Source: Ignavibacteriales bacterium
GTDB taxonomy: Bacteria; Bacillota; Clostridia; Acetivibrionales; UBA4821
DNA length: 64,000 nt
Direction: 5' to 3'
NCBI GenBank assembly: GCA_050260055.1
Contig: JBLNBO010000005.1
Location: 129,613-193,612 of the forward strand
This document shows positions 9,987-59,411 of this stretch, one piece after another (position 1 is the stretch's first letter; each line of letters begins with the position of its first letter). The notes beneath the pieces were generated by a model. That model had not been told where the DNA came from. It saw only the letters and a program-made list of their open reading frames with translations, and searched no databases. Both the position numbers and the translations under genes were made by a program.

Positions 9987-10238
9987 TTGACGATGCTTGA
10001 GGAACTAAAAAGGGCAAAAAAGAAAATTGGTATAAAAGAATGCAGTAAGGCAATAGAGAATGAAAAAGCTTTAATTGCATTTGTTGCAAGTGATGCAGAG
10101 AATAGGGTTGTAAAGCCGTTCGTTGAGCTTTGTAATCAAAAAGCAGTTGAAATAACCTATGTGGACACAATGAGCAATCTTGGAAAAGCTTGTGGAATAG
10201 ATGTAGGAGCCGCTACAGTAGTAATGCTGAAAGAGTGA
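9987..10238 (+). CDS. rplGB: ribosomal protein L7Ae family (YbxF/RplGB-like)
   Basis: ~80 aa L7Ae/L30e-like sequence (ALIAFVASDAE.., NLGKACGIDVGAA); lies between rpoC and rpsL as in Bacillus. Start may be ATG 9993. Confidence 0.85.
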   Translation: MTMLEELKRAKKKIGIKECSKAIENEKALIAFVASDAENRVVKPFVELCNQKAVEITYVDTMSNLGKACGIDVGAATVVMLKE

Positions 10239-16815: not shown

Positions 16816-17948
16816 GAACAATTAAGTTTATACATACTGCGGATATCCACATGGATATCCCTTTAACTTCATTAAATTCATTTAACAATGCTTCGGCAGA
16901 AAGAAGATATCAACAAAGAATTTTGTTTAAGAAGATTATTCAAACCGCTGTTGATAAAGAAATTGATATGCTGCTTATTTCAGGTGACCTCTTCGAGCAT
17001 GAATATACTTCGAAGGGGGCAATTTCTTTTCTGAATGAATGCTTCAATTCTATTCCAAATATCAGGGTTTTCATTAGTCCAGGGAATCATGACCCAATAG
17101 TTCGAAGTTCGTACTATTCTTTTTTTGAATGGGCACCAAATGTTCATATTTTTAACCATACAATTGAAGAGGTAGTTTTAGAAGAACTTGGAGTAAGCAT
17201 ATTTGGCACATGTTTTAATGATTTCCATGTTTATGAATCTGCTCTGAAAGATTTTGAAATTTTGAGTAAAAGCAGGACAAATATTTTGATATCACATGGG
17301 ACGCTTGATTCTATTGGAGGACCAGAAGGTTATCACACTATTTATTCTAAGGAGCTTGAAAAAGCAGGCTTTGATTATATTGCTCTCGGACATATTCATA
17401 GATATCTCCCGGAGCTTGCCGGCAAAAAGGCTTTTTATCCTGGAAGCCCTATGTCACTTGGATTTGATGAGCCAGGGCAGCATGGCATAATTTATGGGAC
17501 ATTAACAGGGAAAAGCTTAGAATACGAGTTTATTCCTATTGACTTAAGGGAGTGCGTCACTCTCCAAATAGATATTAAGGGGTGTGCAACATCAGGGGAG
17601 GCAGTTTCAAAGATTATTTCGGAATGTGAAAATGTTTTAAGGCGTGATAATTACCATCGAATAATAATTGAAGGAATTGTGGAGCCTGAGGTTATCGAAG
17701 AAATTGAATATATCAAAAAAGCTGTTGAATCGCAAACCCAAGGGTATATGGCTCGCTATGATTTTAATCTTTCTTCTGGTTATGATTTGAAAGATATTTC
17801 TAAAGGTAATGACCTTAGAGCAATATTCGTAAGAAAAGTAATGTCAGAAATTGAAAATGCCAGTGATGAATTAGAAAGGCATCGGCATGAGATAATTATG
17901 CAAATAGGATTAAAGGCAATAGACGGGAAGAAGGTGAAATACCTTTGA
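16812..17948 (+). CDS. metallophosphoesterase, SbcD/YhaO-like DNA repair exonuclease
   Basis: FIHTADIHMD, ISGDLFE, GNHD, GHIH calcineurin-like motifs; 4-nt overlaps with both neighbours. Confidence 0.85.
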   Translation: MRTIKFIHTADIHMDIPLTSLNSFNNASAERRYQQRILFKKIIQTAVDKEIDMLLISGDLFEHEYTSKGAISFLNECFNSIPNIRVFISPGNHDPIVRSSYYSFFEWAPNVHIFNHTIEEVVLEELGVSIFGTCFNDFHVYESALKDFEILSKSRTNILISHGTLDSIGGPEGYHTIYSKELEKAGFDYIALGHIHRYLPELAGKKAFYPGSPMSLGFDEPGQHGIIYGTLTGKSLEYEFIPIDLRECVTLQIDIKGCATSGEAVSKIISECENVLRRDNYHRIIIEGIVEPEVIEEIEYIKKAVESQTQGYMARYDFNLSSGYDLKDISKGNDLRAIFVRKVMSEIENASDELERHRHEIIMQIGLKAIDGKKVKYL

Positions 17949-25505: not shown

Positions 25506-25575
25506 GTAATGGGAATTTGAACCTGTGAATATAAATATTTATCAGGGCACCAAAAAACATATTTATGGAGAGACC

Positions 25576-26544
25576 ATGAAGGCTTTAGGATATTATTACT
25601 TAATTATCATATTTGCTGTAATTGTTATTCCTCTTTTGATTGTAAAGGGATGCGGAGGATTAAATAAAGAAAGTATTAAGGGCCTGAAGGATAACCAGAT
25701 TAAGGTTTATTTTCATATGCAAAAAAAAGTTAAAGATATTGATTTCGACGAATATATAAAAGGAGTGCTGGCGGCTGAAATGCCGGCTTCTTATAATATT
25801 GAAGCATTAAAAGCGCAGGCTGTTGCTGCAAGGACTTATGCTTATAACAAGATTTTTTCAGGAGGGAGAGATATAACTGAACACCAGGGAGCAGATGTTT
25901 GTACTGATTCTACTCATTGCCAAGCATGGATGAGCAGGGAAGAAGCGCTTGCAAAGTGGCCTGCATCAAAAGCAAAATCATATTGGGATAGAATATCATG
26001 GGCTGTTAGAAGTACTTCTGGAGAAATGATTTATTATGAAAATGAAATTGCGAATCCGGTTTTTCATGCAAATAGTGGAGGAGAAACAGAAAATTCGGAA
26101 GATGCATGGGGAGGGGTAGTTGTTCCTTATTTAAGGGCAGTAAAAAGTTTGGGAGAGGAAAATTCCTCCGGATACTATTCTGAGGTAGAAATAACGATTA
26201 GTGATTTCATACAGAAACTTAAGAAGTTTAATTCCGAATTCAGCATAGATTTAAAGAAAGTTTTTCAAAACATAAAGATTATTGATTATACAGGAGGTGG
26301 CAGGGTCAAAAATATTAAAATTGGGAACATAAGCTTTAAAGGTACTGATATAAGAACAATATTCAACCTAAAATCTACTAATTTTAAAATTGAGGCTAAA
26401 GAGGGAAAGGTACTTTTTAAGGTAAAGGGTTTTGGACATGGCGTAGGGCTTAGCCAATGCGGAGCTGATGCTTTAGCCCAGAAGGGGTATAGCTATAAGG
26501 AAATACTTGACTATTATTATAAAGGAACTCAAGTAAAGGAATAA
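25576..26544 (+). CDS. spoIID: stage II sporulation protein D (SpoIID/LytB family)
   Basis: N-terminal TM anchor, EEYIKGVLAAEMP, EALKAQAVAARTYA, FHANSGG, GHGVGLSQCGA motifs. Confidence 0.9.
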   Translation: MKALGYYYLIIIFAVIVIPLLIVKGCGGLNKESIKGLKDNQIKVYFHMQKKVKDIDFDEYIKGVLAAEMPASYNIEALKAQAVAARTYAYNKIFSGGRDITEHQGADVCTDSTHCQAWMSREEALAKWPASKAKSYWDRISWAVRSTSGEMIYYENEIANPVFHANSGGETENSEDAWGGVVVPYLRAVKSLGEENSSGYYSEVEITISDFIQKLKKFNSEFSIDLKKVFQNIKIIDYTGGGRVKNIKIGNISFKGTDIRTIFNLKSTNFKIEAKEGKVLFKVKGFGHGVGLSQCGADALAQKGYSYKEILDYYYKGTQVKE

Positions 26545-30891: not shown

Positions 30892-32811
30892 ATGGGTTTT
30901 GAAGGTGATGTAATATTTACTAATGAAAGCAAGTGTCTTGGATGCAATAAATGCATAAGGAATTGTCCTGTTATGGGAGCAAACATTTCTTATTCTGTTG
31001 AAGGAAAAAATAAGGTAAAGGTTGACCAAACTAGGTGTATCAGATGCGGACGCTGTATTGAGGTTTGCGACCATGAAGGGCGCGAGTATTATGATGATAC
31101 GGAAAGGTTTTTTGCGGATTTGGCAGCTGGAAAGAAAATATCTATGGTTGCAGCACCTGCGGCAAGAACGAATTTTGAAAATCTTAAAAGGCTTTTCGGA
31201 TTTCTAAAAGCTGTCGGGGTTAATCTTATTTATGATGTATCCTTTGGTGCAGATGTAACAACCTGGGCGTATTTAAAAGCAGTGACAGCGAATAAACTAA
31301 ATACTATTGTTGCACAGCCATGTCCTGCTGTCGTAAACTATGTAGAAAAATACCAACCCGATTTAATTCCTTATATGGCACCTATTCACAGTCCGATGTT
31401 GTGCACAGTTGTTTATATGAGAACATATGATAAGGTTTCCGATGATATTGCCTTATTATCGCCTTGTATTGGTAAAATTGACGAAATAAACAATGAGAAT
31501 ACAGAAGGGTTGGTCCAGTATAATGTTACTTATAAAAAACTAAAGGAATACATAAACAAACATGGAATCAATCTTTCAAATTACAAAGAAGCAGGGTTTG
31601 ATGATATCGGATGCGGATTAGGCTTTGTATTCAGTAGACCTGGCGGGTTGAAAGAAAATGTTGATAACCGTGTTCCTGGGTTGTGGGTAAGGCAGATTGA
31701 GGGATGTGAAATTGCATATCCATATTTAAGAGAATATAGCCATAGAGTTAAAAGCGGACAGCCGGTTCCACTTCTAGTAGACATTCTGAACTGTCAGGAA
31801 GGATGTAATCTTGGAACAGGAACAGAAAAGAATATAAGCATTGATGATGTTGATTCAAAATTTAACTCAATGAAAAAGGTGAAAGTTAGTGAAAAGACTA
31901 AGAATATGATGAAAAAGAGACAAGACTGGCTGTATGATTATTTCGAAAAGAATCTAAAATGGCAAGATTTTATAAGGCATTATATTAAAATGCCTATTCA
32001 TGAAGTAAAAGAGCCTTCTGATCTTCAGCTAAATGAAATTTTCAATAAATTGCATAAGTATGACAGAGATTCAAGACAGCTTAACTGTTCCGCTTGTGGT
32101 TACGGTACATGTAAGGAGATGGTTAAGGCAATATTCAATGACCTGAATAATTATTCTAATTGTATGGATTTCAACCGCCGTGAGGTAGCAATTGATAATG
32201 AAAAACTTGAAGGCAAAAACAAAGAAGTAAATAAAGCCCTTCTAGAAGTCAAAGCTATGGGTGAAGAGAAACTGGCACAAGCTGATAAGTTGAAGCATCA
32301 CGTTGAAGATATTACCCGCTCTCTTGATGAAGTTGCAAAAGGCAATGAAGAAAATAGTATTGAAATAGGGCGTATCTCAAATGAAGTATCGGATATAGTA
32401 AATACTGCAAAAGTACTTCGTAAAAGCGTTAATGAGATGGAAAGCAAAATTAGGAAGTTCTCTGAAGCTTCATCGGAAATTGTTGACATTGCAAACCAAA
32501 CCAACCTACTTTCATTAAACGCTGCAATTGAAGCGGCAAGGGCAGGAGAAAATGGTATGGGTTTCTCCGTTGTTGCTGAAGAAGTCAGAAAGCTTGCTGC
32601 ACAATCAAAAGAAGTTGCTGCATCAACAAATTCAGACCAAAGAATGCTATTTGACCTTATTAAAGCAATACTTAATATATCTATAGAACTTGAAGAAAAG
32701 ATACATGCGATTAACGAATCTGTTGCTAATATGTCTGCTACAGTTGAAGAAGTAACAGCAAAAGGTGAAGAGATTGCATCTACTGCAATTAGCATAATTA
32801 AGAATAATTAA
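30892..32811 (+). CDS. soluble chemoreceptor: 2x[4Fe-4S] ferredoxin plus [FeFe]-hydrogenase-like H-domain plus Cx2Cx4Cx16C motif plus MCP signalling domain
   Basis: [12 protein letters not shown] and [11 protein letters not shown]; H-cluster-like motifs [27 protein letters not shown]; CSACGYGTC(x16)C; MCP tip [35 protein letters not shown]; no TM helix. Confidence 0.85.
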
Positions 32812-40750: not shown

Positions 40751-40792
40751 AAACAAAAAAGGAGGCAAATTTATTTGCCTCCTTTTTTGTTT
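40751..40792. terminator. bidirectional terminator
   Basis: AAACAAAAAAGGAGGCAAAT-tt-ATTTGCCTCCTTTTTTGTTT between convergent serA and the DUF1015 gene. Confidence 0.9.
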
Positions 40793-42119
40793 AAAATTTG
40801 TTTATTACCAGTCCGGTTGTAATCTTGGGATAAAAGTAGGTTGACTTCTGCGGCATTTTTTCATTTGAGAGGGAAACATCCCTCATTTGGCTAACCTTTG
40901 TAGAATTGAGAAAAAATGCACATTCATACTCTTTAGATTTTACTTTTTCAATAGCGGTTCCTGCATCTTTGACATAGGTTAGATTACTTTGAGCGGCCAT
41001 ATTCTCAGCATCAATTTTAAAATATTGCTCCAGAATAACTGAATGCAAAACAGCAACATCAAGGTCTCGGTAGGCAGGTGACTTATCAGGGACAAGCTTA
41101 TCCATTATTGATACATCTTTAATAGTAAGGATATAGTAATAATCTCCGAGCCCATCAAAATAACCGAATGATTTTCCAAATTCCCCGCTTTGGGCAAGGG
41201 AAATGGTTAGCTGTTCTGGAACGGAGTTTGTATCAAAACTTTTACTATACTCTATTTTTTGAATTCCAAAGTTCTCTTTTGCAAAAGATAAGAATTCTTC
41301 TGAATTAAAATTTTTAATGGATAGAGCCCTGTGCGTAGGGAAAATAACTAATCCGGGGTCCGCCATATCAACAATAGTCATCATTACATAGTTGTAAGAC
41401 TCGGTCCCGTTATGGTTTGGGTTTTCAGAAGCCTTCTTATTTCTGTAGTTTAATGCGGTTTCATATCTATGATGACCATCAGCAATAAAAAGTTTTTTGT
41501 CTTTAAATAATTCACTAATCGAAGATGTTATTTTAGAATCTTTTACTACCCATAATCTTTCAAAGATGTCTTCGCTGTTTACGTAATCAATATCAGGCTT
41601 GTTTTGGATGGTAAAAGAATTTAATATTTCTGATATTTTTCCATCATCATTATATAGTGAAAAGATTTGGCTTATATTTGCATCAGTAGTTGACATTAGA
41701 TTAAATCTGTCTTGCTTCGCCTTGGAAAGTGTGTATTCATGAGGAAGAACAACTCCTTCAGAGAAATCGGATAGTTTAACAAGAGCAATTATTCCACGGC
41801 GGGTTTTTCGTTCCCATTCCGAAACAGTAAAGTCCTGCTCATATATATATATAGCAGGTGAATCTTCCTGTACAAGAATTCCTTCTTCAATCCATTTGCG
41901 AAGATAATTTCCTGCACGGGTATATTTATTATCTGTTTCACTGTCTCCATCAAAATCTTTTCCGAGTTCAATTCTTATTATGTTATTTTCGTGAAGCGAG
42001 TAAAATTCTTCTTGGGCTTCTAAAGAGATTATGTCATAAGGCGGAGTTGTAACCAAAGAAAGATTTTCAATCTTTTTGGAATTATATCTAATTCCTTTAA
42101 AAGGAGATATTACAGCCAT
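40791..42119 (-). CDS. DUF1015 family protein
   Basis: MAVISPFKGIRYN N-terminus and ADGHHRYETAL motif, as I recall them for DUF1015; 442 aa. Confidence 0.7.
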   Translation of the reverse strand: MAVISPFKGIRYNSKKIENLSLVTTPPYDIISLEAQEEFYSLHENNIIRIELGKDFDGDSETDNKYTRAGNYLRKWIEEGILVQEDSPAIYIYEQDFTVSEWERKTRRGIIALVKLSDFSEGVVLPHEYTLSKAKQDRFNLMSTTDANISQIFSLYNDDGKISEILNSFTIQNKPDIDYVNSEDIFERLWVVKDSKITSSISELFKDKKLFIADGHHRYETALNYRNKKASENPNHNGTESYNYVMMTIVDMADPGLVIFPTHRALSIKNFNSEEFLSFAKENFGIQKIEYSKSFDTNSVPEQLTISLAQSGEFGKSFGYFDGLGDYYYILTIKDVSIMDKLVPDKSPAYRDLDVAVLHSVILEQYFKIDAENMAAQSNLTYVKDAGTAIEKVKSKEYECAFFLNSTKVSQMRDVSLSNEKMPQKSTYFYPKITTGLVINKF

Positions 42120-43703: not shown

Positions 43704-45038
43704 TTATCTGGAATAAGAATAGTCTGGTTTTGAGAGAGTTAATGGTTTTTGTTTCCTATCATCTTTGCTTTCAAATATTTCTTCAAAGAATTTAATCCCA
43801 TTACGGAGATTTTCATTTCTCATAAGGTCCATGTGGCTGCCATCAACATTTTTGAAGTGTTTAAATATATTGCTGTCTTCATCCTTAATTGGTACTATTC
43901 CGTCATTCCTTTTATATCCGGCTTCGCTTAAAATGTAATTTCCAAGCCAGCATACCAATGTTTGGGGCCTGGTTATTAGTAAATCTTCCCTGCATTCCTG
44001 TATTTCTTCTTTGCTTTTAGGGATAAACTCCTTTGCTGCTTTATAAATAGCTTTTTGAGCTGCAACTGTTGGCTCTTTCAGAATTCTTTTTGCAGAGGTT
44101 TCTTTGGTTTTTGCATGTAAATCTCTCTTACCCGGAATAACTCCTTTTGTTATATGATAGAGTGTTAATTTTGAAGCCGCTTTTGGAACGCGAAGCATCT
44201 TTTTACGAAAATGCCCTGGCTTTAACTCTCCACGGACAAAATGGGTTTTATCTAGTATTTGATTAAGTATTATTTCGTTTTCCTTGGTTTTATATTTACT
44301 TTCATGAAACTGTCCTCCAATGCAATGTTCATCATATATTTTTTTCCCCTTCGTAGCTTTTTCTTGAAACCTGCAGAACATTTCTATTAATATCTTTTTA
44401 TACAGGGTCTTTTGGTTATCAACAAGAATTTTTCTTAGTTCATCGACACTTCCCATAGGGGTTCCTGACATAGGTGCTCCAAAAGCAAGAGAACCATTTA
44501 TCAATTTGTTAAAATTTTTATTTTCATCAGACTTTTTATTTTGAATTAGATTTTCACTTTCCATCATAGCCCAGTTCCCGATCAAGGTGCCTTTACTAAG
44601 TGATGCCATAATTACTTTCGGTTTGGCAGATTCCTTTCCATAATCTTTGGTACCTTCAAGCAGATTATATAGACCAGAAGCTTCAACTAAAGGAAGCAAT
44701 TGATCTTTTGCAATATCCCTATGACCATGGTCACCTTCGAACTGAAAGAAAATAGGCAGATATCTTTTGCCATCCTCTTTAAAATCAAAGTTATCATATA
44801 AAACTTCTAAAGCAGGATTGGGTAATACATCGGGAGAGCTTTTCGGGCAAAATAAGAACCTGGTATAATCAGGAATACGCTCATTAGAGTTCAATAATTG
44901 ATATGCTTCATATGACATAGTAAGGGTACCGCATTTTTCACCATTTTTACGGTGATATACCGTTACATTCCCCTTTTTGTCTTCTGGCAGCACTACAGTT
45001 ATTCCATTTGGATTAATAGACTTATCATTTTTGTTCAT
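43704..45038 (-). CDS. hypothetical protein, possible alpha/beta-hydrolase fold
   Basis: 444 aa, monocistronic, no signal peptide. Candidate HG (FEGDHGH), nucleophile elbow (ASLSKG), NDGIVP and DGSHMDL motifs in alpha/beta-hydrolase order. Confidence 0.35.
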   Translation of the reverse strand: MNKNDKSINPNGITVVLPEDKKGNVTVYHRKNGEKCGTLTMSYEAYQLLNSNERIPDYTRFLFCPKSSPDVLPNPALEVLYDNFDFKEDGKRYLPIFFQFEGDHGHRDIAKDQLLPLVEASGLYNLLEGTKDYGKESAKPKVIMASLSKGTLIGNWAMMESENLIQNKKSDENKNFNKLINGSLAFGAPMSGTPMGSVDELRKILVDNQKTLYKKILIEMFCRFQEKATKGKKIYDEHCIGGQFHESKYKTKENEIILNQILDKTHFVRGELKPGHFRKKMLRVPKAASKLTLYHITKGVIPGKRDLHAKTKETSAKRILKEPTVAAQKAIYKAAKEFIPKSKEEIQECREDLLITRPQTLVCWLGNYILSEAGYKRNDGIVPIKDEDSNIFKHFKNVDGSHMDLMRNENLRNGIKFFEEIFESKDDRKQKPLTLSKPDYSYSR

Positions 45039-51946: not shown

Positions 51947-51978
51947 AAATAGCTTGAGAGAAACTCTCAAGCTATTTT
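51945..51978. terminator. bidirectional terminator
   Basis: AAAATAGCTTGAGAG-aaa-CTCTCAAGCTATTTT. Confidence 0.85.
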
Positions 51979-52205
51979 TACTCACTATTTTTTTTAAATT
52001 GATTGCATTTTTCCATATACTCTAAGTATTTACACATGTACTTATAATACATATACATGTATTCAAGATACATCATCGGATTTTGCATATAAGGTTCAGC
52101 AAAAGGCATTCCCATTTTTGGCATGCCCATTTGGGGCATTTCCATTGCAATATCTCCGGTTGGATTATAACCCATCATTGCTGAATAGTCTTTCATTATG
52201 TCCAT
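51978..52205 (-). CDS. small Met/Tyr-rich protein (75 aa)
   Basis: ATG 52205 follows TTAGGAGG. Translation MDIMKDYSAMMGYNPTGDIAMEMPQMGMPKMGMPFAEPYMQNPMMYLEYMYMYYKYMCKYLEYMEKCNQFKKNSE. Confidence 0.6.
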   Translation of the reverse strand: MDIMKDYSAMMGYNPTGDIAMEMPQMGMPKMGMPFAEPYMQNPMMYLEYMYMYYKYMCKYLEYMEKCNQFKKNSE

Positions 52206-52444
52206 AATAAACCTCCTAAGGATTTCATATATAATTAGTATATAAAATTTAGGCTTCAAGGTTACACTGAAATTTGTGATGAATTGTTATTAATGATATA
52301 TAGACTAATTTAAAAGATAATTGGAAATAATATTGAAAAACCATTGGAAAAGCTATTTTTGTATGGTATAATAGATGTTGATAAGTAGACAAGCAATATG
52401 ATTTGTTCATATGGGTACTCATTAATTTGCGGGAGGTGATACCT

Positions 52445-52837
52445 ATGAGAAAAATCAACAGTAAAGCGGTTTACAATAGGTTAATGAAAACCTATGGAAA
52501 CTCTTTTCAAAGCATACTTGATTATCACTCGCTAAAAACCAATGATGAAGGAATATATACCCAAGACGCAACGGTTAGGCAAATTCAAGAACGGGACTTG
52601 CTAGATTATCAGAGAGAAGCGTTTGTTGAAGAAACGCTAGTACTAGCCGGAAGTCTATGCAAAACTAATGATTCAATAGACTGTGTTGAGAAAGAAAGTA
52701 TAATTTTCTTTACAGAAGGTTATGTCGAAGCAGAGGAAATTCCATTCACTTCAAAAAGGGTACAGGAATCTATTGAGGTATTAGCGCAAAGGGTAACCAG
52801 AAATATTATCAATTCTAAAGGTGTGTATAAAGTATAA
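52445..52837 (+). CDS. hypothetical protein (130 aa)
   Basis: ATG 52445 follows GGGAGGTG; own terminator at 52863-52902. Confidence 0.6.
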   Translation: MRKINSKAVYNRLMKTYGNSFQSILDYHSLKTNDEGIYTQDATVRQIQERDLLDYQREAFVEETLVLAGSLCKTNDSIDCVEKESIIFFTEGYVEAEEIPFTSKRVQESIEVLAQRVTRNIINSKGVYKV

Positions 52838-52902: not shown

Positions 52903-53034
52903 GCAGATGACAAATTTTTCATTTTGTTATATAATATAATCATAGGCAAAAGAATAATATGTATTCTAATGACGAAATCTTGATAAACATTCTTTAATTT
53001 CCCAAATATACTTTCCTCTTGAAAAGGAGGGCTA

Positions 53035-53484
53035 ATGATGGAAAGCAGTAATCAAAGTAGTGCGCAGGCAGGTTTGGGGTTTTCCCATGCCAGCATCAAT
53101 ACTCTGGTAATTATGGATGAGCCGGAGGAAAACACAATTGTTTATGCCTGGAAGGAAGGAGGCTTTAAAAAGCTTCCGTATGATGAGCATATTGCAAAAT
53201 CGGGGCAGAAGGTAAAAACCTTCATGAGTCCGAATAAATCAGAGAGGGTAACAGTAGTTACAATAAACAAAGAAGAATTATGTATTACTTTAACGGTCGG
53301 GTTGATTGAGGATAACAGCTTAAAGGCTATTGGAAAACCTTTAAAGTATTATGGAAATAGAAACCTAGCAAAAGTAACAGAAAAATACATGCATAAAGTA
53401 CCAATTGATAATCCAGTTATGTTTTTCTCTCTTAATCCGGATAATTTCGGGGAAGAGATTAAACCAGTCATAATAAATAAGTAA
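53035..53484 (+). CDS. hypothetical protein (149 aa), first gene of the T4CP operon
   Basis: AAGGAGGG RBS; no recognisable motif. Confidence 0.65.
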   Translation: MMESSNQSSAQAGLGFSHASINTLVIMDEPEENTIVYAWKEGGFKKLPYDEHIAKSGQKVKTFMSPNKSERVTVVTINKEELCITLTVGLIEDNSLKAIGKPLKYYGNRNLAKVTEKYMHKVPIDNPVMFFSLNPDNFGEEIKPVIINK

Positions 53485-53508
53485 TTTAAGAAGTTTGGGG
53501 GAATTGTT

Positions 53509-54135
53509 ATGGGTAAAACTCCAGCTGAAAAAGGATATTATGTAGATGGTGCACTGGCTTTTGGCTTTGATGAAAGAGCGTTCAAAGAAGGAAAATCTGT
53601 TGCTTTTGCTACAGAGATTGATGCTAGCCAGCCAAATTTAGAAACCTTTGAAAACACTCATGCGATTATTCAGGATATAGGAGACCATGAATTAAACCCT
53701 AGATATATTACTAAGGAACAGGAAAGAGACCAAGAACAGCAGCCAATAAGTACAAGGCAGGAACAAGTGCGTTCTGGACAAGAACCTATTCAAGCAAGTC
53801 AGGTCCAACAGCCTGTTCAAGATGGGCCCAATATGGCAGAATTGAACAAACATCCAGTATTAGATGCTGAAAGACTAAAGGAAAATAAAGACCAAACAAT
53901 AGATGCAAGAAGTAATGAACAAAATAAAGATGAGAAACCAAGAGGACCTGAGATTAATCCAAAGGATTCTTCTATTTTCTCTATGTCAAGACAGCAAGCT
54001 GCTCCTACTGTTGAACAATCGAAGACCCCTGCAGATGGGCAGCAAAAGCCGCTTGACCCAAGAGAAGCAAGTGCTAGAAGGGTTGCAGAACAAAGAAAGG
54101 CAATGGAGCAGGGAGACAAAGAAGTGGGCAGATAA
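53509..54135 (+). CDS. hypothetical protein with long Q/E/P-rich low-complexity tail (208 aa)
   Basis: GGGGGA RBS; ~65-aa N-terminal part looks globular; the rest is Q/E/P/K-rich. Confidence 0.65.
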   Translation: MGKTPAEKGYYVDGALAFGFDERAFKEGKSVAFATEIDASQPNLETFENTHAIIQDIGDHELNPRYITKEQERDQEQQPISTRQEQVRSGQEPIQASQVQQPVQDGPNMAELNKHPVLDAERLKENKDQTIDARSNEQNKDEKPRGPEINPKDSSIFSMSRQQAAPTVEQSKTPADGQQKPLDPREASARRVAEQRKAMEQGDKEVGR

Positions 54136-54178
54136 CGGTTCTGACAATACCATTACTAAGGAGGAAAAAGGATAGAAC

Positions 54179-56050
54179 ATGCTTAGAATACCCAAGGATT
54201 TGCAAAAAAGACTTATCGTATATGCGGTAATAATTGTTATATTTTGTGTTTATGTGACTTCATGTATGGCTGTTGCAAGCTTTTCTATAGAACAAGAAAA
54301 CAAGAAAATGCCTAAGGAAAAAAGAATAGGTGGAATAGATTATCTTGTAGCTTTACAAGATAAAACTACGGTTAACTTATCTAACCCCTTTGGCAACTTA
54401 GGTACGGTTTTTACTAACAAAGATGTAAGGAAAGTATACTTTGAATTTTCAAAGCTTGCTTTCCTTTTATTGTTTGGGTTATTTACCTTCTCAGAAATTA
54501 AGGTGTATTTGGGTAAAAGAGAATATGAAAACATAGAACATGGTTCGAGTAAATGGGCTACAGGAGAAGAGTTTGAGATACTTAACAAGAATAAAGGATT
54601 ACTCCTAGGAGTTGGTAGATATCTTGATATAGACAGCAGGAAAATTAATAAAAACGTATTAATATTCGGTGGAGCCGGTTCTAGAAAATCAAGAGGCTAT
54701 GTTATGCCTAATATATTGAATATGCTTGGTTCCTATGTAATAACAGACCCAAAAGGTGAACTTTATGATACTACTGCAGGGTTTTTAAAAGCAAACGGCT
54801 ATGACGTAAAGGTTTTCAACCTGGTAAACCCGGACTGCAGTGATAACTACAATCCGCTTGCTCATGTAAAAACCAATATAGATGTTGATATAATTGCAGA
54901 TTCAATAATTGATAATACGAATGCTGGTGCAAAATCTGAGGACCCATTTTGGCCGTTGGCAGAAAAGGCGCTGCTAAAATCCTGTATCTATTATATTTGT
55001 TCAAAATGCCCTCCGGAAGAACAGTCTCTCGCAAGCTGTCTTGCACTTGTTCGTGCAGGTGCTGATTTTGACTTAATGGATAATATGTTTATGGAGCTTC
55101 CATTTGACCATATGGGAAGGAAGAACTATGAAACCTTTAGATTGGCTGTTGATAAAACAAGAGCAGGAGTTTTGGTTGGATTGGCAACCAGGCTCAATCC
55201 TTTTGATACGCCGGAAATAGCATCTGTAATGAGTACAAATAATATTGATATTGAGGCTTTGGGGAAAAAGAAGACTGCAATATACTGCATAACTCCTGAC
55301 AGCCACAGCACATTTAACTTCCTTGCAACCATGTTCTTTGGGCAGATTTTGCAAAGACTTTACGATGTTGCTGATAAGAATGGAGGTTCTTTGGATACTC
55401 AAGTATTCTTCATGTTGGACGAGTTTGCAAACACGGGAAGAATTCCTGACTTTAACCAAAAAATTAGTACCAGCCGAAGCAGAAAGATTAATATCAGTAT
55501 AATACTCCAGAGTTTGGACCAGCTTATAGACCTTTATAAGGAAATTCATGAAAACATTATTTCAAACTGCGATACCCAGCTATTCTTGGGAAGCCAGGCG
55601 CTAAAAACCTGCGAATACATTTCAAAGAGTCTTGGTGAAACCACAATCTCTAAAAAGACAGAGTCTTATAATACTCCATTTAAAGGAATCATGGGAAACA
55701 TGCTTGGATCAGGCAGTGGACAGGGGAGTTACTCCATGACCAGCGGGGAACAGTCAATGGCTAGAACACTTATGACTGTTGATGAATTGAAGAGACTTGA
55801 TTTGTGGACAGAAATTATAATGATAAAGGGTATAAACCCAATTAAATGTAAAAAGTTTGATATTGCACAGCATCCGGGATATGAGCAATCAGTCCAAACA
55901 AAAATACACCATAATGAAATTAAGGCTGATAGCAGGCCGGAATGGCGAATATTCAATCCATACAACTATACTCCTTCGAATAACAACGAGCAGGAAATAT
56001 CTGATGAAGAGCTAGAAAAGAGATTTGATGAATTGTTCAATATAGTATAG
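54179..56050 (+). CDS. VirD4/TraG-family type IV coupling protein (T4CP)-like ATPase
   Basis: Two N-terminal TM helices; IFGGAGSRKSRGYVMPNILN..VITDPKGELY (Walker A region); FFMLDEFANTGRIP (Walker B); SRSRKINISIILQSLDQL. Confidence 0.8.
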   Translation: MLRIPKDLQKRLIVYAVIIVIFCVYVTSCMAVASFSIEQENKKMPKEKRIGGIDYLVALQDKTTVNLSNPFGNLGTVFTNKDVRKVYFEFSKLAFLLLFGLFTFSEIKVYLGKREYENIEHGSSKWATGEEFEILNKNKGLLLGVGRYLDIDSRKINKNVLIFGGAGSRKSRGYVMPNILNMLGSYVITDPKGELYDTTAGFLKANGYDVKVFNLVNPDCSDNYNPLAHVKTNIDVDIIADSIIDNTNAGAKSEDPFWPLAEKALLKSCIYYICSKCPPEEQSLASCLALVRAGADFDLMDNMFMELPFDHMGRKNYETFRLAVDKTRAGVLVGLATRLNPFDTPEIASVMSTNNIDIEALGKKKTAIYCITPDSHSTFNFLATMFFGQILQRLYDVADKNGGSLDTQVFFMLDEFANTGRIPDFNQKISTSRSRKINISIILQSLDQLIDLYKEIHENIISNCDTQLFLGSQALKTCEYISKSLGETTISKKTESYNTPFKGIMGNMLGSGSGQGSYSMTSGEQSMARTLMTVDELKRLDLWTEIIMIKGINPIKCKKFDIAQHPGYEQSVQTKIHHNEIKADSRPEWRIFNPYNYTPSNNNEQEISDEELEKRFDELFNIV

Positions 56051-56065
56051 AATAGGTGAAGAAAT

Positions 56066-56767
56066 ATGGAAATAAGCAAACGTGCGAATAGTTTAGTTAG
56101 ATTCTTTGGGACTGAATTTTCAGGAATGGAACCTAAAGAAGGCGTAGAAAAGCTTGAGGGCCTTATTTCGCAATACGTAAAAGCTGAAGGAAAGTATACA
56201 GGTGTTGGAGTTATCGAAGCAAAAGATATAGAACGCTGGAACTATACGCTTGACATATATAAAGAAATTTCAGGAATCGTATTTGGTCTTGAAAAGAATT
56301 ATCCGAATTGTAATGAAACAATTTCGAATTTTTTTGACTTAAAAATGGTTGAAGCTTTTCTATCTGCAGTGATACTAAGGGGCTCGAAAGTGTTTAGGGA
56401 TATAGAAGACAAACAGAAGATTACTCTTGAAGAAAAGAAATTGTTCGAAGGGGACAACTTTGTGGAGCAGGAGCATTTAAGCCTAATCGAGAATTTTATG
56501 AAATCCCCGGTTCCATTCATTAAGGAAAATGATACTCAGCAGTTTTTTATCGGTATTCCCGAAAATACTAGAGAGGTAGAAAAGTTTTTCGAAAAAGGGC
56601 AAATCGTAAAGTGGTATCTGGTATACTATCTTGCATTAGTACAAAAGGAAAAAGAAATATTAGAAAATAAAGGAATCAAAGTCGATTTGAGTAAAACAGA
56701 AAAAAGAGTAAAGTCAATGATGAATGAGTTTGTTCAGCATAACAAAGCAAAGTCGAAAGAAAGATAA
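56066..56767 (+). CDS. hypothetical protein (233 aa)
   Basis: AGGTGA RBS; 15-nt gap after the T4CP gene; no recognisable motif. Confidence 0.65.
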   Translation: MEISKRANSLVRFFGTEFSGMEPKEGVEKLEGLISQYVKAEGKYTGVGVIEAKDIERWNYTLDIYKEISGIVFGLEKNYPNCNETISNFFDLKMVEAFLSAVILRGSKVFRDIEDKQKITLEEKKLFEGDNFVEQEHLSLIENFMKSPVPFIKENDTQQFFIGIPENTREVEKFFEKGQIVKWYLVYYLALVQKEKEILENKGIKVDLSKTEKRVKSMMNEFVQHNKAKSKER

Positions 56768-56949
56768 CTTTTCTAATCATCGTTTTATAGTAGTTCAAAA
56801 ATGCATTACTGTTTAGAATTAGCTGATATGGTTTGACTTTATGTTTGTCTAAAAGGAGGTAAAAAGAGAAGCAGTTTAAGGCTTTAAGATTTACCGCTCC
56901 GCTATAAGAATCTTTGTATTTTACGTCAATTCAAGGAAGTGAAACTATC

Positions 56950-58428
56950 ATGTATCTAATAAAAAAGCATGTTTTATTTACAGCGCTTTGCTTTTTTGTG
57001 TTTTTAAAATTGAGCAATCAATGCTGGGCGGTTGATTCTGCTTGGGAATATATTCCGTATGACATTAATGCCCAGGCAATCAGAAGCGACGGCAGTGTTG
57101 TTTTTGCTGGAGAAAATGGTTTTTACCATATCCTTGACAGTGATGGCACGACTGTATTAGTATCCGGGTTCTGGAAGTATGGTGAATATGGAATAAATAC
57201 TTTAGTGCTTCTTGAGGACGATAAGGTTTTAATGGCAGGAGAGGGCGGATTTTATCAAATACTGAAAAAAGATAATAGTCTTGGTACTTCAGGACAGTGG
57301 GGTGGCGGAAGCTATAGCATAAATACATCTGTGAAGCGTGCAGATGGAAAAGCTGTTTTGGCGGGAGATGAAGGATATGTGGAGTTTGTAGAAAGTAATG
57401 GGACCCTTGATGAAAGCTCGTTGCTAAAATGGGGAATGGGGTCTCAGGAGGCAGACTATAATATCTATGCTGCTGCATGCAGGTCTGATGGTATTATTGT
57501 ATTAGGAGGCGAAAACGGCTACTATCAAAAGATTAGCGCAGAAGGAGCCTTGATTAACCCCGGAAACTGGTGGAATAACGGTAGCTGCGATATAAGGGCA
57601 ATGGCGGCAAGGAGCGATGATGTAATTATAATGGCAGGGGATGATGGTTTTTATCAAACTATTGATGCATATGGAGCTCTCCTTGATACTGAAAAATGGT
57701 GGGACAATTTATCAAGAGAAATTAAAGTATTAAAGGCGCTGGCAAATGGAAGTGTCATTATGGCTGGGCAGGAAGGATATTACCAGAGATTATTGCTGAC
57801 TGATGAACTGGAGGCTGGAGACTGGTGGAAATATAGGATAAATTCTGTAAACTCAATTGCAGAAAACCTTAGTTCCAAGCTGATAATGGCAGGAGAAGAC
57901 GGATTTTATATGATATATAATCCAATTCAGGTGATTGATTTTACCGATAGGGTAACTGCTGCAAACTATTGGATGGATACTCCGGAAGAAATTCAGGCTT
58001 TTAACTATTATATACTTAAGGCTAATATAGTTTCAAAATTTGTAATTGACCCTGCAGGAGAGTCATATGACAGCTATGAAGTCCAAATAGATTTAAACTC
58101 TCGAGGAAATGATGAAATTAGTATTGACTCAGGTGATGTTGTTAGAATTACAAACTTATCAAATGGAATAAGGCTATCTGCACAAAATAAACAAATAATC
58201 AATAACGGCAGAAATATCAGTTTTAATGTTCCTGGTGGAAGCAATTCGAAAATTGAGATTTATTTTAAATATAAAGTAGATAAGAAAAATGAAGCGGCAT
58301 TAAGTGAAAGCAAAAAGACCGTAATTAATAAAGTTACTGTTACAGGAATCAAAGGGACGGAAAGAAATGCTGTAACTCCGGTTTCTAATACCATAAAAAT
58401 TAAAGATATAAAAATAATTCTAATGTAA
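56950..58428 (+). CDS. secreted protein with seven ~42-aa repeats (beta-propeller-like) plus C-terminal beta-rich domain
   Basis: Signal peptide MYLIKKHVLFTALCFFVFLKLSNQCWA. Seven copies of a h-h-h-AG-[ED]-[NGDE]-G-[FY]-[YV] core (AGENGFY, AGEGGFY, AGDEGYV, GGENGYY, AGDDGFY, AGQEGYY, AGEDGFY), most followed by a W-containing segment. Confidence 0.7.
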   Translation: MYLIKKHVLFTALCFFVFLKLSNQCWAVDSAWEYIPYDINAQAIRSDGSVVFAGENGFYHILDSDGTTVLVSGFWKYGEYGINTLVLLEDDKVLMAGEGGFYQILKKDNSLGTSGQWGGGSYSINTSVKRADGKAVLAGDEGYVEFVESNGTLDESSLLKWGMGSQEADYNIYAAACRSDGIIVLGGENGYYQKISAEGALINPGNWWNNGSCDIRAMAARSDDVIIMAGDDGFYQTIDAYGALLDTEKWWDNLSREIKVLKALANGSVIMAGQEGYYQRLLLTDELEAGDWWKYRINSVNSIAENLSSKLIMAGEDGFYMIYNPIQVIDFTDRVTAANYWMDTPEEIQAFNYYILKANIVSKFVIDPAGESYDSYEVQIDLNSRGNDEISIDSGDVVRITNLSNGIRLSAQNKQIINNGRNISFNVPGGSNSKIEIYFKYKVDKKNEAALSESKKTVINKVTVTGIKGTERNAVTPVSNTIKIKDIKIILM

Positions 58429-58442
58429 AAGGAGACTTTTTT

Positions 58443-59240
58443 ATGAAAAAAGTATTGAATGGTATTTTTTGTGCAGTATGCTTGATGATATTATTTTCAG
58501 CAAGTCCGGCGCAGGCTGAACCAAGCGGAACTGTAGGGGATAGTTATTATATGTTTACAACAGGTACTTGTGAGAGATCAGAGCCTTCAAGTAAATACTA
58601 TTATAATGGCAGTGCGCATTACGAGGTAGAAGTAGGTCACGTCTCTGATGAGGAGACATATAACTATATAGTTGAAGTAACTCCTGTGGTTCCAAGCATA
58701 GGGATGGGGACTTTCTATCCTGTAATAAGGGAGTATACTAGTGATGTTAATCGTTATAGAATTTATAATTTATATATAGAGGACTTACCATATCCGGGTA
58801 CAATGTATTATTATACCGTAAGACTTGTTGGGCAACAAGAAATTAGTGTAGGTTCATTTACAACTACTGGTACTGCTCCGGCATGGATAGCTAATCCGGT
58901 AAGCTCAGGCGGAGGAGGGGCTGCTGGCGGAGATACCGAACCGCCAGAACTTACTTTGCTTTGGCAGGGGAATAAAACAACCATAGCAAAAAATACATCG
59001 GTTAAGCTGGTTGTAATTGTGCAGGATAATATAAGTGCAATAGGCAAGATTAAACTGGAATACAGCAAGGATGACGGAAGTATATATACAGAGTTTAACA
59101 AGGATGCGAACCAAAAGTATACCCAGTCTGCGAATATAACATTTTCTGAAGGGAACAAGTTTGTAAACGTCCTTGTTCGGGCTACAGATGAAGCAGGGAG
59201 ACAATCCATGGGATATAAAACGATTTATGTAACTGAATAA
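58443..59240 (+). CDS. secreted two-domain protein (FN3-like N-domain, Gly-rich linker, Ig-like C-domain)
   Basis: Signal peptide ..LFSASPAQA; YYYTVRL..GSFTT; linker SGGGGAAGGDTEPPE; C-terminal beta-rich module; AAGGAG RBS. Confidence 0.65.
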   Translation: MKKVLNGIFCAVCLMILFSASPAQAEPSGTVGDSYYMFTTGTCERSEPSSKYYYNGSAHYEVEVGHVSDEETYNYIVEVTPVVPSIGMGTFYPVIREYTSDVNRYRIYNLYIEDLPYPGTMYYYTVRLVGQQEISVGSFTTTGTAPAWIANPVSSGGGGAAGGDTEPPELTLLWQGNKTTIAKNTSVKLVVIVQDNISAIGKIKLEYSKDDGSIYTEFNKDANQKYTQSANITFSEGNKFVNVLVRATDEAGRQSMGYKTIYVTE

Positions 59241-59256
59241 GGTGAGGGTTTTCTAC

Positions 59257-59285: not shown

Positions 59286-59307
59286 AATAACTAATAAAAT
59301 ACGTTGT

Positions 59308-59411
59308 TTATAGAGCAGGCGATCGGGCAACCGGTGGGGCTGGGCTGGTTAATCAGCAGCAGGTTAAACCTGTGGGACTATAATTTTAAATTATGGTTTC
59401 ACAGGTTTTTT
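59308..59411 (+). ncRNA. candidate czcD (NiCo)-type metal riboswitch with terminator expression platform
   Basis: P1 UUAUAG/CUAUAA closes three hairpins: AUCGG-GCAA-CCGGU, GCUG-GUUAAU-CAGC and CAGG-UUAAA-CCUG. Junction strands are G-rich. The 3' half of the last hairpin is shared with terminator AAACCUGUG..CACAGGUUU plus U-run. Sits upstream of a CDF transporter. Confidence 0.5.

Follow-up and report, generated by a model that had tools for sequence, protein, structure and literature searches.

A 64-kb stretch of DNA, referred to below as the window, contains six co-directional genes in which the first-pass annotation saw an orphan operon, lying between uvrC and a riboswitch-controlled CDF transporter gene: a VirD4/TraG-type coupling protein (T4CP) and five partners. 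The six open reading frames lie exactly where it placed them, separated by short gaps of 24, 43, 15, 146 or 182, and 14 nucleotides, the fourth depending on the start of E504, and an SD-like purine tract is present at each of the six starts (Table 1). The flanks are also as described: uvrC is recognised from its translation, with a Pfam match in the syntenic locus L011, and a NiCo riboswitch stands 5' of the CDF gene. The syntenic block contains two further conserved open reading frames, o93 and o144, upstream of the six. The GC content of the locus, 0.364 against 0.355 for the window, resembles that of its flanks, and the 20 largest other open reading frames of the window are, according to NCBIfam, housekeeping or sporulation genes only: rpoC, cca, amt, spoIID, SafA-like, PPase, serA, murC and the like.

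Table 1. Features of the locus, in window coordinates.
Feature	Position	Strand	Remarks
o93	51978-52259	-	tblastn matches in relatives
Sigma-A-like promoter of o144	52344-52372	+	promoter scan
o144	52403-52837	+	counterparts at same position in relatives
Sigma-A-type promoter for A149, B208 and T4CP	52907-52935	+	ATGACA-17-TATAAT, 11/12 consensus match; ~100-nt leader follows
A149	53035-53484	+	ORF list
B208	53509-54135	+	ORF list
T4CP-like membrane NTPase (VirD4/TraG, CD1115-type)	54179-56050	+	clade I, chromosomal family
T4CP N-terminal membrane domain	54197-54511	+	two hydrophobic segments around a ~50-residue loop
T4CP non-canonical Walker A	54668-54697	+	GGAGSRKSRG; DNA read
T4CP Walker B	55406-55423	+	FFMLDE (D414 E415); conserved
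T4CP C-terminal tail motif	56012-56038	+	LEKRFDELF, residues 612-620; proposed A/A2 docking peptide
D233	56066-56767	+	ORF list
Window-specific insertion with E504 and F265	56768-59250	+	no counterpart in any locus
E504	56914 (TTG) or 56950 (ATG) to 58428	+	ORF list
F265	58443-59240	+	ORF list
NiCo riboswitch	59301-59382		55.7 bits; 5' of CDF gene

The promoter core TGACAA...TGnTATAAT is shared by the loci of four relatives (L001, L011, L002 and L003), and near-consensus sigma-A promoters are found 5' of the A2 gene, the family to which A149 is assigned below, in every other lineage. Taken together, the hits of the promoter scan do not exceed chance expectation, and the promoter call rests on this conservation.

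A chromosomal family of coupling proteins

The identification of the central gene as a VirD4/TraG-type T4CP is borne out by the NCBIfam model NF045973, 'VirD4-like, CD1115 family' (419 bits, for a cutoff of 250), and by the Pfam families PF02534 T4SS-DNA_transf (233.8 bits), PF12696 TraG-D_C (111.7 bits) and PF10412 TrwB_AAD_bind (73.2 bits). Its membrane anchor appears as two N-terminal hydrophobic segments on the Kyte-Doolittle scale, residues 7-38 and 86-111.

The gene belongs to a single identity cluster of at least 123 chromosomal sequences (32 in clade I, 72 in clade IIa, 15 in clade IIb, plus frameshifted genes), which share about 33% identity with two plasmid T4CPs; in the plasmid collection, even their best matches do not exceed 38% identity. 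We examined 18 of the chromosomal loci with flanks of up to 10 kb. Every sublineage has its own stable neighbourhood of housekeeping or sporulation genes, and the neighbours are often genes of DNA metabolism or sporulation: uvrC, recN, sbcCD, dnaB, spoIID. Five diverged relatives (L002, L003, L005 and L011/12) keep the order uvrC-o93-o144-A-B-T4CP...rib, and L001 is syntenic with the window on the downstream side only. In the syntenic relatives, the T4CP is 64-88% identical to that of the window, equal to or higher than the 60-78% observed for uvrC; its dN/dS, approximate because dS is saturated, is 0.058-0.076, and its dN is lower than that of uvrC in every comparison. These comparisons indicate a stably inherited chromosomal gene in spore-forming Clostridia. 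When the conservation of the cassette at this locus is checked, A149, B208 and the T4CP hold together but the six genes do not. The conserved unit is A149 and the T4CP with a small, disordered protein (B) encoded between them; o144 and D233 are lineage-specific.

The window protein fails to match the canonical Walker A motif of T4CPs, GxxGxGK[ST]: it reads GGAGSRKS, where R169 replaces an invariant Gly, and is also changed by S166A and A172R. Position 169 is not Gly in 32 out of 32 clade I sequences, being Arg in all but two, which have Lys, and the Arg codon differs among relatives (AGA, CGA or AGG); the P-loop changes of clade I are fixed, and the synonymous codons point to selection for Arg. 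The P-loop of clade II (n=87) reads GGSG[ST/A]GK[ST]A, and both clades keep Walker B (LDEFAN) and the STSRSR and NCDT motifs. Because the Gly that precedes Lys in Walker A is replaced by a selected Arg, the label of 'motor' is questionable: from general knowledge of P-loops, R169 would be expected to affect ATP binding.

The T4CP gene of the window is in frame. Four sister genes (L007, L008, L016 and L017) have a +1 frameshift site, TCN-C-GGA-AAA, in the Walker A motif, and the gene of L006 has a second site, GGT-C-GGT. The TCN-C-GGA site is common to sequences that are just about 45% identical, and the open reading frames on either side of the sites are intact, with lengths of 161-165 and 503-509 amino acids. 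The codon read in frame 0 at the shift site is CGG, which is absent or rare elsewhere: in other long open reading frames it accounts for 0/3210 codons in L006, 0/3863 in L008 and 5/6034 in L007. On two criteria, these five genes are candidates for programmed +1 frameshifting, with a putative full-length product.

Partners of the coupling protein

A149 has no match in Pfam, PHROG, PADLOC or PDB; its AF2 model (pLDDT 74.9) has a beta core at residues 21-110, and its orthologues are 50-86% identical with a dN/dS of 0.06-0.13. Comparison by hhalign relates it to the A2 family (71.7% probability, E 3.5e-5), whose 824 members are neither named nor annotated in Pfam. The A2 HMM matches A149 at 1.1e-34, in a profile that itself includes A149-type rows; A149 is shortened and divergent relative to A2, and is without the last A2 strands. 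This HMM picks exactly one open reading frame per locus, immediately upstream of the T4CP, in 16/16 chromosomal loci tested, and has no match in two plasmid T4SS loci; many members of the family appear to co-occur with a T4CP match in one genome. With moderate profile-profile support, A149 can be taken as a cytoplasmic all-beta partner of the T4CP belonging to the A2 family, a type of partner protein that is previously undescribed.

The E/Q/A/K/P-rich composition of B208, with an Arg-rich C-terminus, agrees with its description as a mostly disordered protein, and disorder is probable. B208 evolves fast (dN/dS 0.30-0.65). A small open reading frame of type B is found in every locus, variable in sequence, and about 40% of the A2 proteins have a conserved C-terminal extension where it would be: B208 is the positional equivalent of this small frame, or of the extension, in other lineages.

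The remaining genes are more restricted. The likely start of o144 is the ATG at 52445, with the Shine-Dalgarno sequence GGGAGGTG; L001, L002, L003 and L011/12 have 33-58% identical counterparts in the corresponding place, with a dN/dS of 0.14, and none is found in the remaining T4CP lineages. We class o144 as a lineage-specific cytoplasmic protein. D233, also cytoplasmic and starting 15 nucleotides 3' of the T4CP gene, has orthologues in L001 and L011/12 only (45-63% identical, dN/dS 0.07-0.13); its slot holds an unrelated frame of 203 amino acids in L002, and nothing in L003. The Met/Tyr-rich o93, between uvrC and o144, has tblastn matches in L002, L003, L011 and L012, and its membership in the module is uncertain. 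Neither D233 nor o93 matches a known family.

The C-terminus of the T4CP links it to A2. The motif F.[ED][LIM]F occurs within the last 45 amino acids of 114/120 members of the T4CP family. It is also found 54-80 amino acids upstream of the A2 domain in 19 of the 34 multidomain A2 proteins, and within the first 100 amino acids in seven of these 34, against a mean of 0.10 for shuffled sequences; standalone A2 proteins have 0 occurrences in 38,031 residues. The multidomain architectures are TIR-motif-A2-Sel1, SEFIR-motif-A2 and Pkinase-motif-A2-Sel1, with heads that match ThsB-like, bSEFIR and PD-T4-6/mad6 models. Since the KFDELF tail is also upstream of the A domain in these fusions, the A protein probably docks on the tail of the T4CP. 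One Paenibacillus plasmid T4CP ends in LEKQMDELI, so that the tail is perhaps older than the orphan family, with another binding partner.

Explanations of the module

The T4CP is always paired with its partner, without conjugation genes, and was thus probably recruited for another cellular job. The explanation that we favour, with rather more confidence than doubt, is a vertically inherited, chromosomal, T4SS-independent module, in which the T4CP has been exapted into an attenuated membrane NTPase complex. Its direct support consists of family membership, synteny, selection, co-occurrence with A and B, a T4SS-free neighbourhood, the state of the P-loop and the motif-domain fusions. The core of the module would be the T4CP-derived NTPase with two TM segments, the all-beta A149 encoded just upstream and the small disordered B, all three transcribed from the sigma-A-type promoter, with o144 and D233 as accessories in the near lineage. 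The T4CP would form the usual membrane-anchored hexamer, A would dock on its conserved LExKFDELF tail, and B would be bound by A or fused to it. In the window clade, where G169R, S166A and A172R would have retuned a P-loop whose companion motifs, Walker B included, are kept, nucleotide binding is most likely atypical or hydrolysis slow, so that the T4CP most likely works as a scaffold or receptor under regulation, and not as a processive conjugative DNA pump. The earlier proposal of a T4CP motor recruited into a new module thus went in the right direction, except for the word 'motor' and for the inclusion of E504 and F265.

There is some possibility, to which we give limited weight, that the module serves immunity, conflict or signalling. 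The T4CP ATPase would then be the effector head, in the role that TIR, SEFIR and Ser/Thr-kinase domains have in the multidomain proteins, and A2, with B replacing the Sel1 repeats, would be a sensor or regulator. The motif and A2 unit is indeed shared with proteins that have such defence-like heads, and the P-loop has been impaired several times independently: if an active ATPase is costly, attenuation by Gly to Arg or by low-efficiency +1 frameshifting would follow. A2-B-T4CP could even, though we doubt it, be a new system, an immunity-like or stress-signalling membrane device with a conjugation-derived ATPase as output head of a sensor/adaptor made of the FxELFG motif and A2, which in other proteins would drive the TIR, SEFIR and Ser/Thr-kinase heads; a dangerous ATPase would be throttled by the Gly to Arg P-loop in the window clade or by a programmed +1 frameshift at a hungry CGG in the Walker A motif of the sister clade. 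However, PADLOC gives no match for A149, A2, the motif and A2 region, the accessory proteins or o144, and a sub-threshold match only for the T4CP (mad8, E 0.039). The module is syntenic and conserved like housekeeping genes, outside variable islands; A2 is not found in the phage collection; and TIR, kinase and Sel1 proteins need not be immune.

It is unlikely that the T4CP is a host-encoded coupling protein still serving a T4SS-like channel, or conjugative or mobilisable elements, whose genes lie in another part of the genome. Its domain set is complete, including TMD and AAD, and the window is just a 64-kb part of the source genome. In L007, moreover, a protein of 1002 amino acids with about 6 TM segments, positive for Pfam T4SS_pilin, sits 5.7 kb upstream of the T4CP, and T4SS-like partners may therefore exist elsewhere in module-bearing genomes. 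However, this protein is the sole T4SS-like exception in the 18 loci, and neither the window nor any other locus has a counterpart of it. Relaxase, MobC, VirB4, PrgI, NlpC/P60 and FtsK-like probes from a genuine CD1115-type plasmid T4SS were used with tblastn: as the first-pass annotation claimed, nothing but the T4CP is matched in the window, and the control plasmid NZ_CP118103 (L014, Paenibacillus urinalis) shows the complete set. VirB4, relaxase, PrgI and hydrolase are absent from the 18 flanked loci (tblastn for L001-L013; Pfam tables for L009-L013 and L018-L020). Vertical inheritance over deep divergence is also ill-suited to dependence on ICEs, which are transient, and the P-loop is non-canonical.

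An envelope or secretion operon of six genes, with the T4CP exporting E504 and F265, is highly improbable and is contradicted by the comparative data. The genes are co-directional, no terminator is predicted before 59366, and the two proteins do look secreted: after a hydrophobic N-terminus, E504 has the seven repeats announced for it (7 x G[EDQ]xG[FY][YVM], with a period of about 43 amino acids), then a C-terminal domain, and F265 has a signal-like N-terminus. However, Sec signals imply export independent of the T4CP, and the absence of E504 and F265 from relatives 86-88% identical and from every other locus argues against such an operon. The boundaries are sharp: the sequence 3' of the F265 stop aligns with the sequence directly 3' of the D stop in L011. 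We read the two genes as an unrelated insertion outside the conserved module.

The other reading put forward at first, a decayed fragment of an ICE or of an integrative mobilisable element, is so improbable that we consider it refuted: the conjugation-type T4CP is the only recognisable domain and the nearby small frames are unannotated, but the gene, with a dN/dS of about 0.06 and a dN under that of uvrC, is constrained by purifying selection no less than uvrC, keeps its chromosomal position and synteny across genomes whose uvrC is 60% identical, has no integrase (NCBIfam on the 20 largest other frames), att site or, in the 64-kb window, tRNA gene, has the GC content of its flanks, and belongs to a family of at least 123 whose 18 sampled loci are all in housekeeping or sporulation contexts.

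Comparison with known systems

The window T4CP resembles the CD1115-family plasmid and ICE T4CPs of Firmicutes in its Pfam and NCBIfam families, two-TM N-terminus, Walker B and AAD; it is 35-38% identical to the plasmid members over the NBD, and one of these has a similar acidic/hydrophobic C-terminal tail. However, plasmid T4CPs have canonical P-loops (GGAGTGKS, GAPGTGKS) where the window protein has G replaced by R. The L014 plasmid gene lies among relaxase, MobC, FtsK-like, PrgI, VirB4 (CD1110) and NlpC/P60 genes, and the window gene has none of these; it has instead a fixed chromosomal position and A2 and B partners, both missing from the plasmid loci.

Adaptors are known to dock on the C-terminal tails of T4CPs: TraM on TraD in the F plasmid, and IcmS/IcmW, DotN and LvgA on DotL in Legionella. 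The module likewise combines a conserved acidic/hydrophobic C-terminal peptide with a small cytoplasmic partner encoded nearby. Here, however, the partner is an unrelated all-beta protein without PDB neighbour, a relaxosome or effector repertoire is not evident, and the contact is suggested by domain fusions only.

The FtsK/HerA superfamily includes stand-alone membrane DNA translocases, such as SpoIIIE/FtsK and Streptomyces TraB. The module shares with them a membrane-anchored P-loop NTPase, proposed here to be hexameric, without a multi-protein secretion channel, and a setting of spore-forming hosts and, often, of DNA-metabolism or sporulation neighbours. However, the window protein is in the T4CP branch, its promoters are of sigma-A and not sporulation type, the P-loop of its clade is non-canonical, and a DNA-binding gamma-like domain was not detected in it.

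Programmed +1 shifts of the prfB type are known. The sites of the sister genes resemble these, and those of glass-sponge mitochondria, by a rare CGG in frame 0 and intact flanking reading frames. In glass-sponge mitochondria, +1 frameshifting occurs at rare CGG_(A) codons, with a C or T insert 5' of GGA (Atkins et al. 2016, PMC5009743); the sites described here, by contrast, are in bacterial chromosomal genes, inside the Walker A motif.

Finally, the unit made of the FxELFG motif and A2, which belongs to no PADLOC model, is shared with TIR, SEFIR and kinase proteins that have ThsB-like, bSEFIR and PD-T4-6-like heads. There, one polypeptide carries the head, the fused unit and then Sel1 repeats, whereas in the T4CP and A pair the unit is split over two genes.

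The coupling protein and the ORF upstream of it

The six open reading frames of the locus lie exactly at the coordinates proposed in the first-pass annotation, with gaps of 24, 43, 15, 146 (TTG start) or 182 (ATG start), and 14 nucleotides, and with a Shine-Dalgarno-like tract at each start. The 623-aa product, there called a VirD4/TraG-like membrane ATPase, is by its sequence a bona fide type IV coupling protein (T4CP): it has two N-terminal hydrophobic segments, matches the NCBIfam model "VirD4-like, CD1115 family" at 419 bits (cutoff 250), and also matches Pfam T4SS-DNA_transf, TraG-D_C and TrwB_AAD_bind. An exact-sequence look-up of this protein found no record. Nothing usable was found in Pfam, NCBIfam, PHROGs or PADLOC for the five other products (A149, B208, D233, E504 and F265), or for o144 and o93, two small conserved ORFs between uvrC and A149; weak matches of accessory proteins to SlmA-like_C, Dph2 and the delta-60 repeat were all below cutoffs and were rejected.

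A protein search with the T4CP gave 1538 matches at E<=1e-60. The best 120 of these 1538, which we inspected, fall into two groups: clade I (at least 692 bits), with the window and 31 others, has the P-loop GGAGS[R/K]KSRG, and clade II (at most 559 bits) has the canonical P-loop GGSG[ST/A]GK[ST]A. By identity, the two clades group into a single cluster of three subclades, cI, cIIa and cIIb, which share about 33% identity with two plasmid T4CPs; in a plasmid collection, the best matches are 35-38% identical and all annotated as CD1115 family.

The universal feature of these loci is an unannotated ORF immediately 5' of the T4CP gene. In most lineages it belongs to a family of 166-221 aa, A2, whose HMM matches exactly one ORF, the one upstream of the T4CP gene, in each of the 16 chromosomal loci tested, and none in two plasmid T4SS loci. 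All 824 members of the family are unnamed and lack Pfam domains, and for many of them the longest contig is as long as that of a T4CP match. A149 aligns with A2 over 128 columns (hhalign probability 71.7%, E 3.5e-5) and lacks its last strands. Both are predicted to be all-beta, in AF2 models that are confident (A149, pLDDT 74.9, core 85-92; A2, pLDDT 81.8, pTM 0.76). Foldseek against the PDB gave no credible analogue of A149 (best AFV1 ORF157, E 0.01, TM 0.40) or of A2 (TM <=0.22), nor did a PDB profile search, and a phage collection searched with A2 gave no match.

Between A and the T4CP gene lies B, a small, fast-evolving and probably disordered ORF whose dN/dS of 0.30-0.65 is approximate, dS being saturated. 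In about 40% of A2 proteins, B is replaced by a conserved C-terminal extension, NRGAVVATDG[KR]R[IL]EAMS[HY]G...DD[DE][LM]IV, and these proteins are, as their sequences read, A-B fusions. Fusions of T4CP and A2 number 0 among the 120 T4CPs.

Nearly all T4CPs of the family end in LExKFDELF(G), and 114 of the 120 have F.[ED][LIM]F within their last 45 residues. An exhaustive profile search with A2 yielded 370 cluster representatives, and 34 of the best 150 of these 370, used for architectures, are long multidomain proteins, of the Pfam architectures TIR-A2-Sel1, Pkinase-A2-Sel1 and A2-Sel1, one of them with a SEFIR head according to PADLOC. Of these 34 proteins, 19 carry the F.[ED][LIM]F motif 54-80 residues before A2. 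It is found in the first 100 residues of 7 of the 34, against a mean of 0.10 (maximum 2) in shuffled sequences, and nowhere in standalone A2 proteins (38,031 residues). Since the motif keeps a near-constant place before A2 and is never found in standalone A2, motif and domain would thus form one unit, which is divided in the orphan module, the motif lying in the T4CP tail and the domain in the A gene, and the simplest reading of such a unit is that A docks on the tail. A Paenibacillus plasmid T4CP ends in LEKQMDELI, so that the tail may have existed before the orphan family.

The reading that we favour, and hold as a whole to be moderately probable, is that of an exapted, vertically inherited T4CP-A-B membrane complex. 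The T4CP would have been recruited away from conjugation for a T4SS-independent role with A and B; A would probably dock on its C-terminal tail; and its NTPase activity would be attenuated in the window's clade. A clearly less probable reading, which keeps some weight, makes the T4CP the output head of an immunity- or signalling-type system.

As an observation apart, the FxELFG motif, a linker of about 65 aa and the A2 beta-domain make up a new unit of many large proteins (P0294-P0394), in which it follows a TIR, SEFIR or Ser/Thr-kinase head and precedes Sel1 repeats; it has no Pfam or PADLOC model. One lead was discarded: P0385 matched the bSEFIR model over a span overlapping A2, and the isolated motif and A2 region had no PADLOC match.

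Features of the window and of related loci and proteins
Feature	Source	Position	Remarks
sbcD-like phosphoesterase and 665-aa SMC_N/AAA_23 (SbcC/Rad50-like) ATPase	window	16812-19942	same pair directly 3' of T4CP in cIIb (L006-8, L020)
spoIID	window	25525-26544	adjoins T4CP in cIIa
639-aa protein	window	30892-32811	N-terminal [FeFe]-hydrogenase-like region, C-terminal methyl-accepting chemotaxis signalling domain; NCBIfam matches to both halves
442-aa DUF1015 protein	window	40791-42119 (-)	neighbour of the 444-aa ORF
444-aa ORF	window	43704-45038 (-)	no NCBIfam match
o93	window	51978-52259 (-)	small, Met/Tyr/Cys-rich (…NPMMYLEYMYMYYKYMCKYLEYMEKC…); no family match; kept beside uvrC in L002, L003, L011
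o144	window	52403-52837 (+)	promoter of its own
sigma-A-type promoter	window	52907-52935	ATGACA-17-TATAAT, upstream of A149; kept in L001, L011, L002, L003
local hairpin	window	53015-53030	CCTCTT-GAAA-AGGAGG; would sequester A149 Shine-Dalgarno; present in L001, L011, absent in L002, L003
A149	window	53035-53484	
B208	window	53509-54135	
T4CP	window	54179-56050	
Walker A	window	54668-54697	GGT GGA GCC GGT TCT AGA AAA TCA AGA GGC = GGAGSRKSRG
D233	window	56066-56767	
E504	window	to 58428	
F265	window	58443-59240	
NiCo riboswitch	window	59301-59382	upstream of CDF gene; terminator at 59366
T4SS_pilin-like protein	L007	1284-4292	1002 aa, about 6 TM; Pfam PF18895, 36 bits; 5.7 kb upstream of T4CP
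Tad/Flp pilus locus	L013	14771-21048	about 3 kb downstream of T4CP
candidate shift site	L007	10445-10475	Walker A coding sequence, clade II
candidate shift site	L008	5755-5785	Walker A coding sequence, clade II
candidate shift site	L016	1679-1708	Walker A coding sequence, clade II
candidate shift site	L017	1966-1995 (-)	Walker A coding sequence, clade II
candidate shift site	L006	~10146-10170	Walker A coding sequence, clade II
motif EELEAKFEELFG	P0329	residues 16-25	A2 at 100-278
motif LDKKFEELFG	P0305	residue 328	A2 from 397

Chromosomal neighbourhoods

Sampling of neighbourhoods took in cIIa, cIIb and a second cI lineage, and all are core chromosome of spore-formers. The order is (ssb-rpsR-)gdpP-rplI-dnaB-tilS-ftsH...A2-T4CP-spoIID-M23-spoIIID-mbl, or dut, in cIIa (L009, L010, L018); sleB-ypeB...dnaJ-like-A2-small-T4CP-sbcD-sbcC in cIIb (L006-8, L019, L020); and, in the second cI lineage, prs-nadK-recN-A2-B-T4CP-ispG (L013) or spoIIR-like/acyl-CoA ligase-A2-B-T4CP (L004). 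Except for one T4SS_pilin match in L007, no T4SS, relaxase or integrase genes were found at these loci. That protein, whose long C-terminal part is acidic/coiled, is the one T4SS-like neighbour among the loci examined, and has no counterpart in the window or at any other locus. That the T4CP cooperates with a T4SS-like channel encoded elsewhere seems to us unlikely, a little more so than a role as output head. On a C. sporogenes plasmid (L015, pRSJ11_1, 267 kb), a Tad locus and a spoIIID copy were seen, with two adjacent CD1115-type T4CP genes and no adjoining VirB4.

The predicted absence of other T4SS or relaxase genes from the window held: tblastn probes from a genuine CD1115-type plasmid T4SS (relaxase, MobC, VirB4, PrgI, NlpC/P60 and FtsK-like proteins) match the T4CP alone. 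The absence of tRNA and the riboswitch control of the CDF gene were likewise borne out. Among the 20 largest other ORFs of the window, all of housekeeping or sporulation function, are rpoC, cca, amt, ytvI-like, sbcD-like, spoIID, SafA-like, PPase, serA and murC.

The earlier view of a six-gene unit with two secreted proteins did not survive the comparison. E504 and F265 do have signal-like N-termini, followed in E504 by seven repeats of about 43 aa, as had been described; neither has a counterpart in any compared locus or resembles the giant surface proteins encoded close to the T4CP genes of L004 and L011. After the F265 stop comes CTTGACA...TATAAT and the riboswitch, which align with the sequence directly after the D stop in L011. 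The pair is therefore a window-specific insertion, and a six-gene secretion operon is very improbable. D233 is limited to the closest relatives (L001, L011/12), and o144 and o93 to the uvrC-locus lineage.

Least probable of all is the suggestion that the locus is a decayed ICE fragment, from which such synteny, selection and base composition would not be expected. Eight reference-genome loci were found to encode T4CP relatives, with identities to the window of 64-70% (L002, L003, L005), 88% (L011/L012) and 86% (L001). The order murC-(spoVG)-uvrC-o93-o144-A149-B-T4CP ... ribD/E/BA or CDF-MFS-ribE is common to L002, L003, L005 and L011/L012; L001 keeps o144-A-B-T4CP-D-CDF-MFS, with a PBP-like gene upstream in place of uvrC. 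The T4CPs are as similar as the uvrC products (60-78%) or more so; their dN/dS is 0.058-0.076, approximate since dS is saturated, with dN below that of uvrC in every comparison; and the GC of the locus is like that of its flanks.

Near-consensus TTGACA/TATAAT pairs are found upstream of A2 in every other lineage; sigma-A-type hexamers being thus present in all, sporulation-specific promoters were ruled out. No terminator was predicted before that of the riboswitch, and in the A149 leader neither a conserved RNA structure (-0.5 kcal/mol) nor an Rfam match was found.

The source MAGs are labelled "Ignavibacteriales bacterium" and "Deltaproteobacteria bacterium" by NCBI (P0001, P0005/P0011; L001 title). 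The gene content (spoIID and SafA-like, with sleB/ypeB in relatives) and every relative indicate spore-forming Clostridia, so that a binning or labelling error is probable for these contigs.

The P-loop and candidate frameshifts

In the window's clade, an Arg stands in place of the invariant Gly of the P-loop, encoded by AGA, CGA or AGG depending on the relative. This use of different codons indicates selection, not error, behind the Arg. Three P-loop changes and no others are fixed between the clades, S166A, G169R and A172R, and conservation is complete in both for Walker B (LDEFAN), STSRSR and NCDT. From general knowledge of P-loops, the clade I changes should weaken or alter nucleotide binding, and retention of the rest of the nucleotide site argues for a P-loop retuned rather than lost.

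Several sister genes carry a candidate +1 frameshift, programmed or compensatory. L007, L008 and the metagenome contigs L016 and L017 have an additional C before the Gly codon, TCN-C-GGA-AAA, and L006 has one 9 nt upstream, GGT-C-GGT. At both types of site the 0 frame reads CGG, the +1 frame gives back GGSGSGKS, and the ORFs on both sides are intact (161-165 aa and 503-509 aa). The L007 T4CP is only about 45% identical to the other shifted genes, and unshifted relatives at 70-74% identity have GGT AAA at the site. Elsewhere, these low-GC genomes use CGG rarely or not at all (in other long ORFs, 0 of 3210 codons in L006 and 0 of 3863 in L008). In glass-sponge mitochondria, a +1 shift is documented at the same C-GGA configuration, a C 5' of GGA giving CGG_A (PMC5009743).

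The clade I reading S-R-K-S results when one G is removed from CGGAAAATC, and the window's Arg may therefore be the fossil of a frameshift site; a simple substitution of GGA to CGA/AGA accounts for it equally well.

Significance and known systems

Coupling proteins are regarded as hallmarks of type IV secretion and conjugation, and are used as markers to detect ICEs and plasmids. A literature search on orphan, chromosomal or domesticated T4CPs and on "CD1115" returned nothing relevant, and the searchable literature holds no description of a T4SS-independent exapted coupling protein, which this one would be. Since the family is large, chromosomal and vertically inherited, and without T4SS neighbours (the L007 pilin-like match excepted), its loci will be wrongly labelled by ICE callers and by automated annotation ("conjugal transfer protein").

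The retuned P-loop and the recurrent +1 frameshift in Walker A would be a natural experiment on attenuating a potentially harmful hexameric NTPase, and the frameshift, if confirmed, a bacterial example of CGG-hungry-codon recoding. A2 would be a new partner domain, with a short motif linking T4CPs to TIR/SEFIR/kinase-Sel1 proteins, and this link a concrete, testable protein-protein interface. The docking of TraM on TraD, and of adaptors on DotL, is well established; the docking of A on the T4CP tail, which we infer here, would resemble both.
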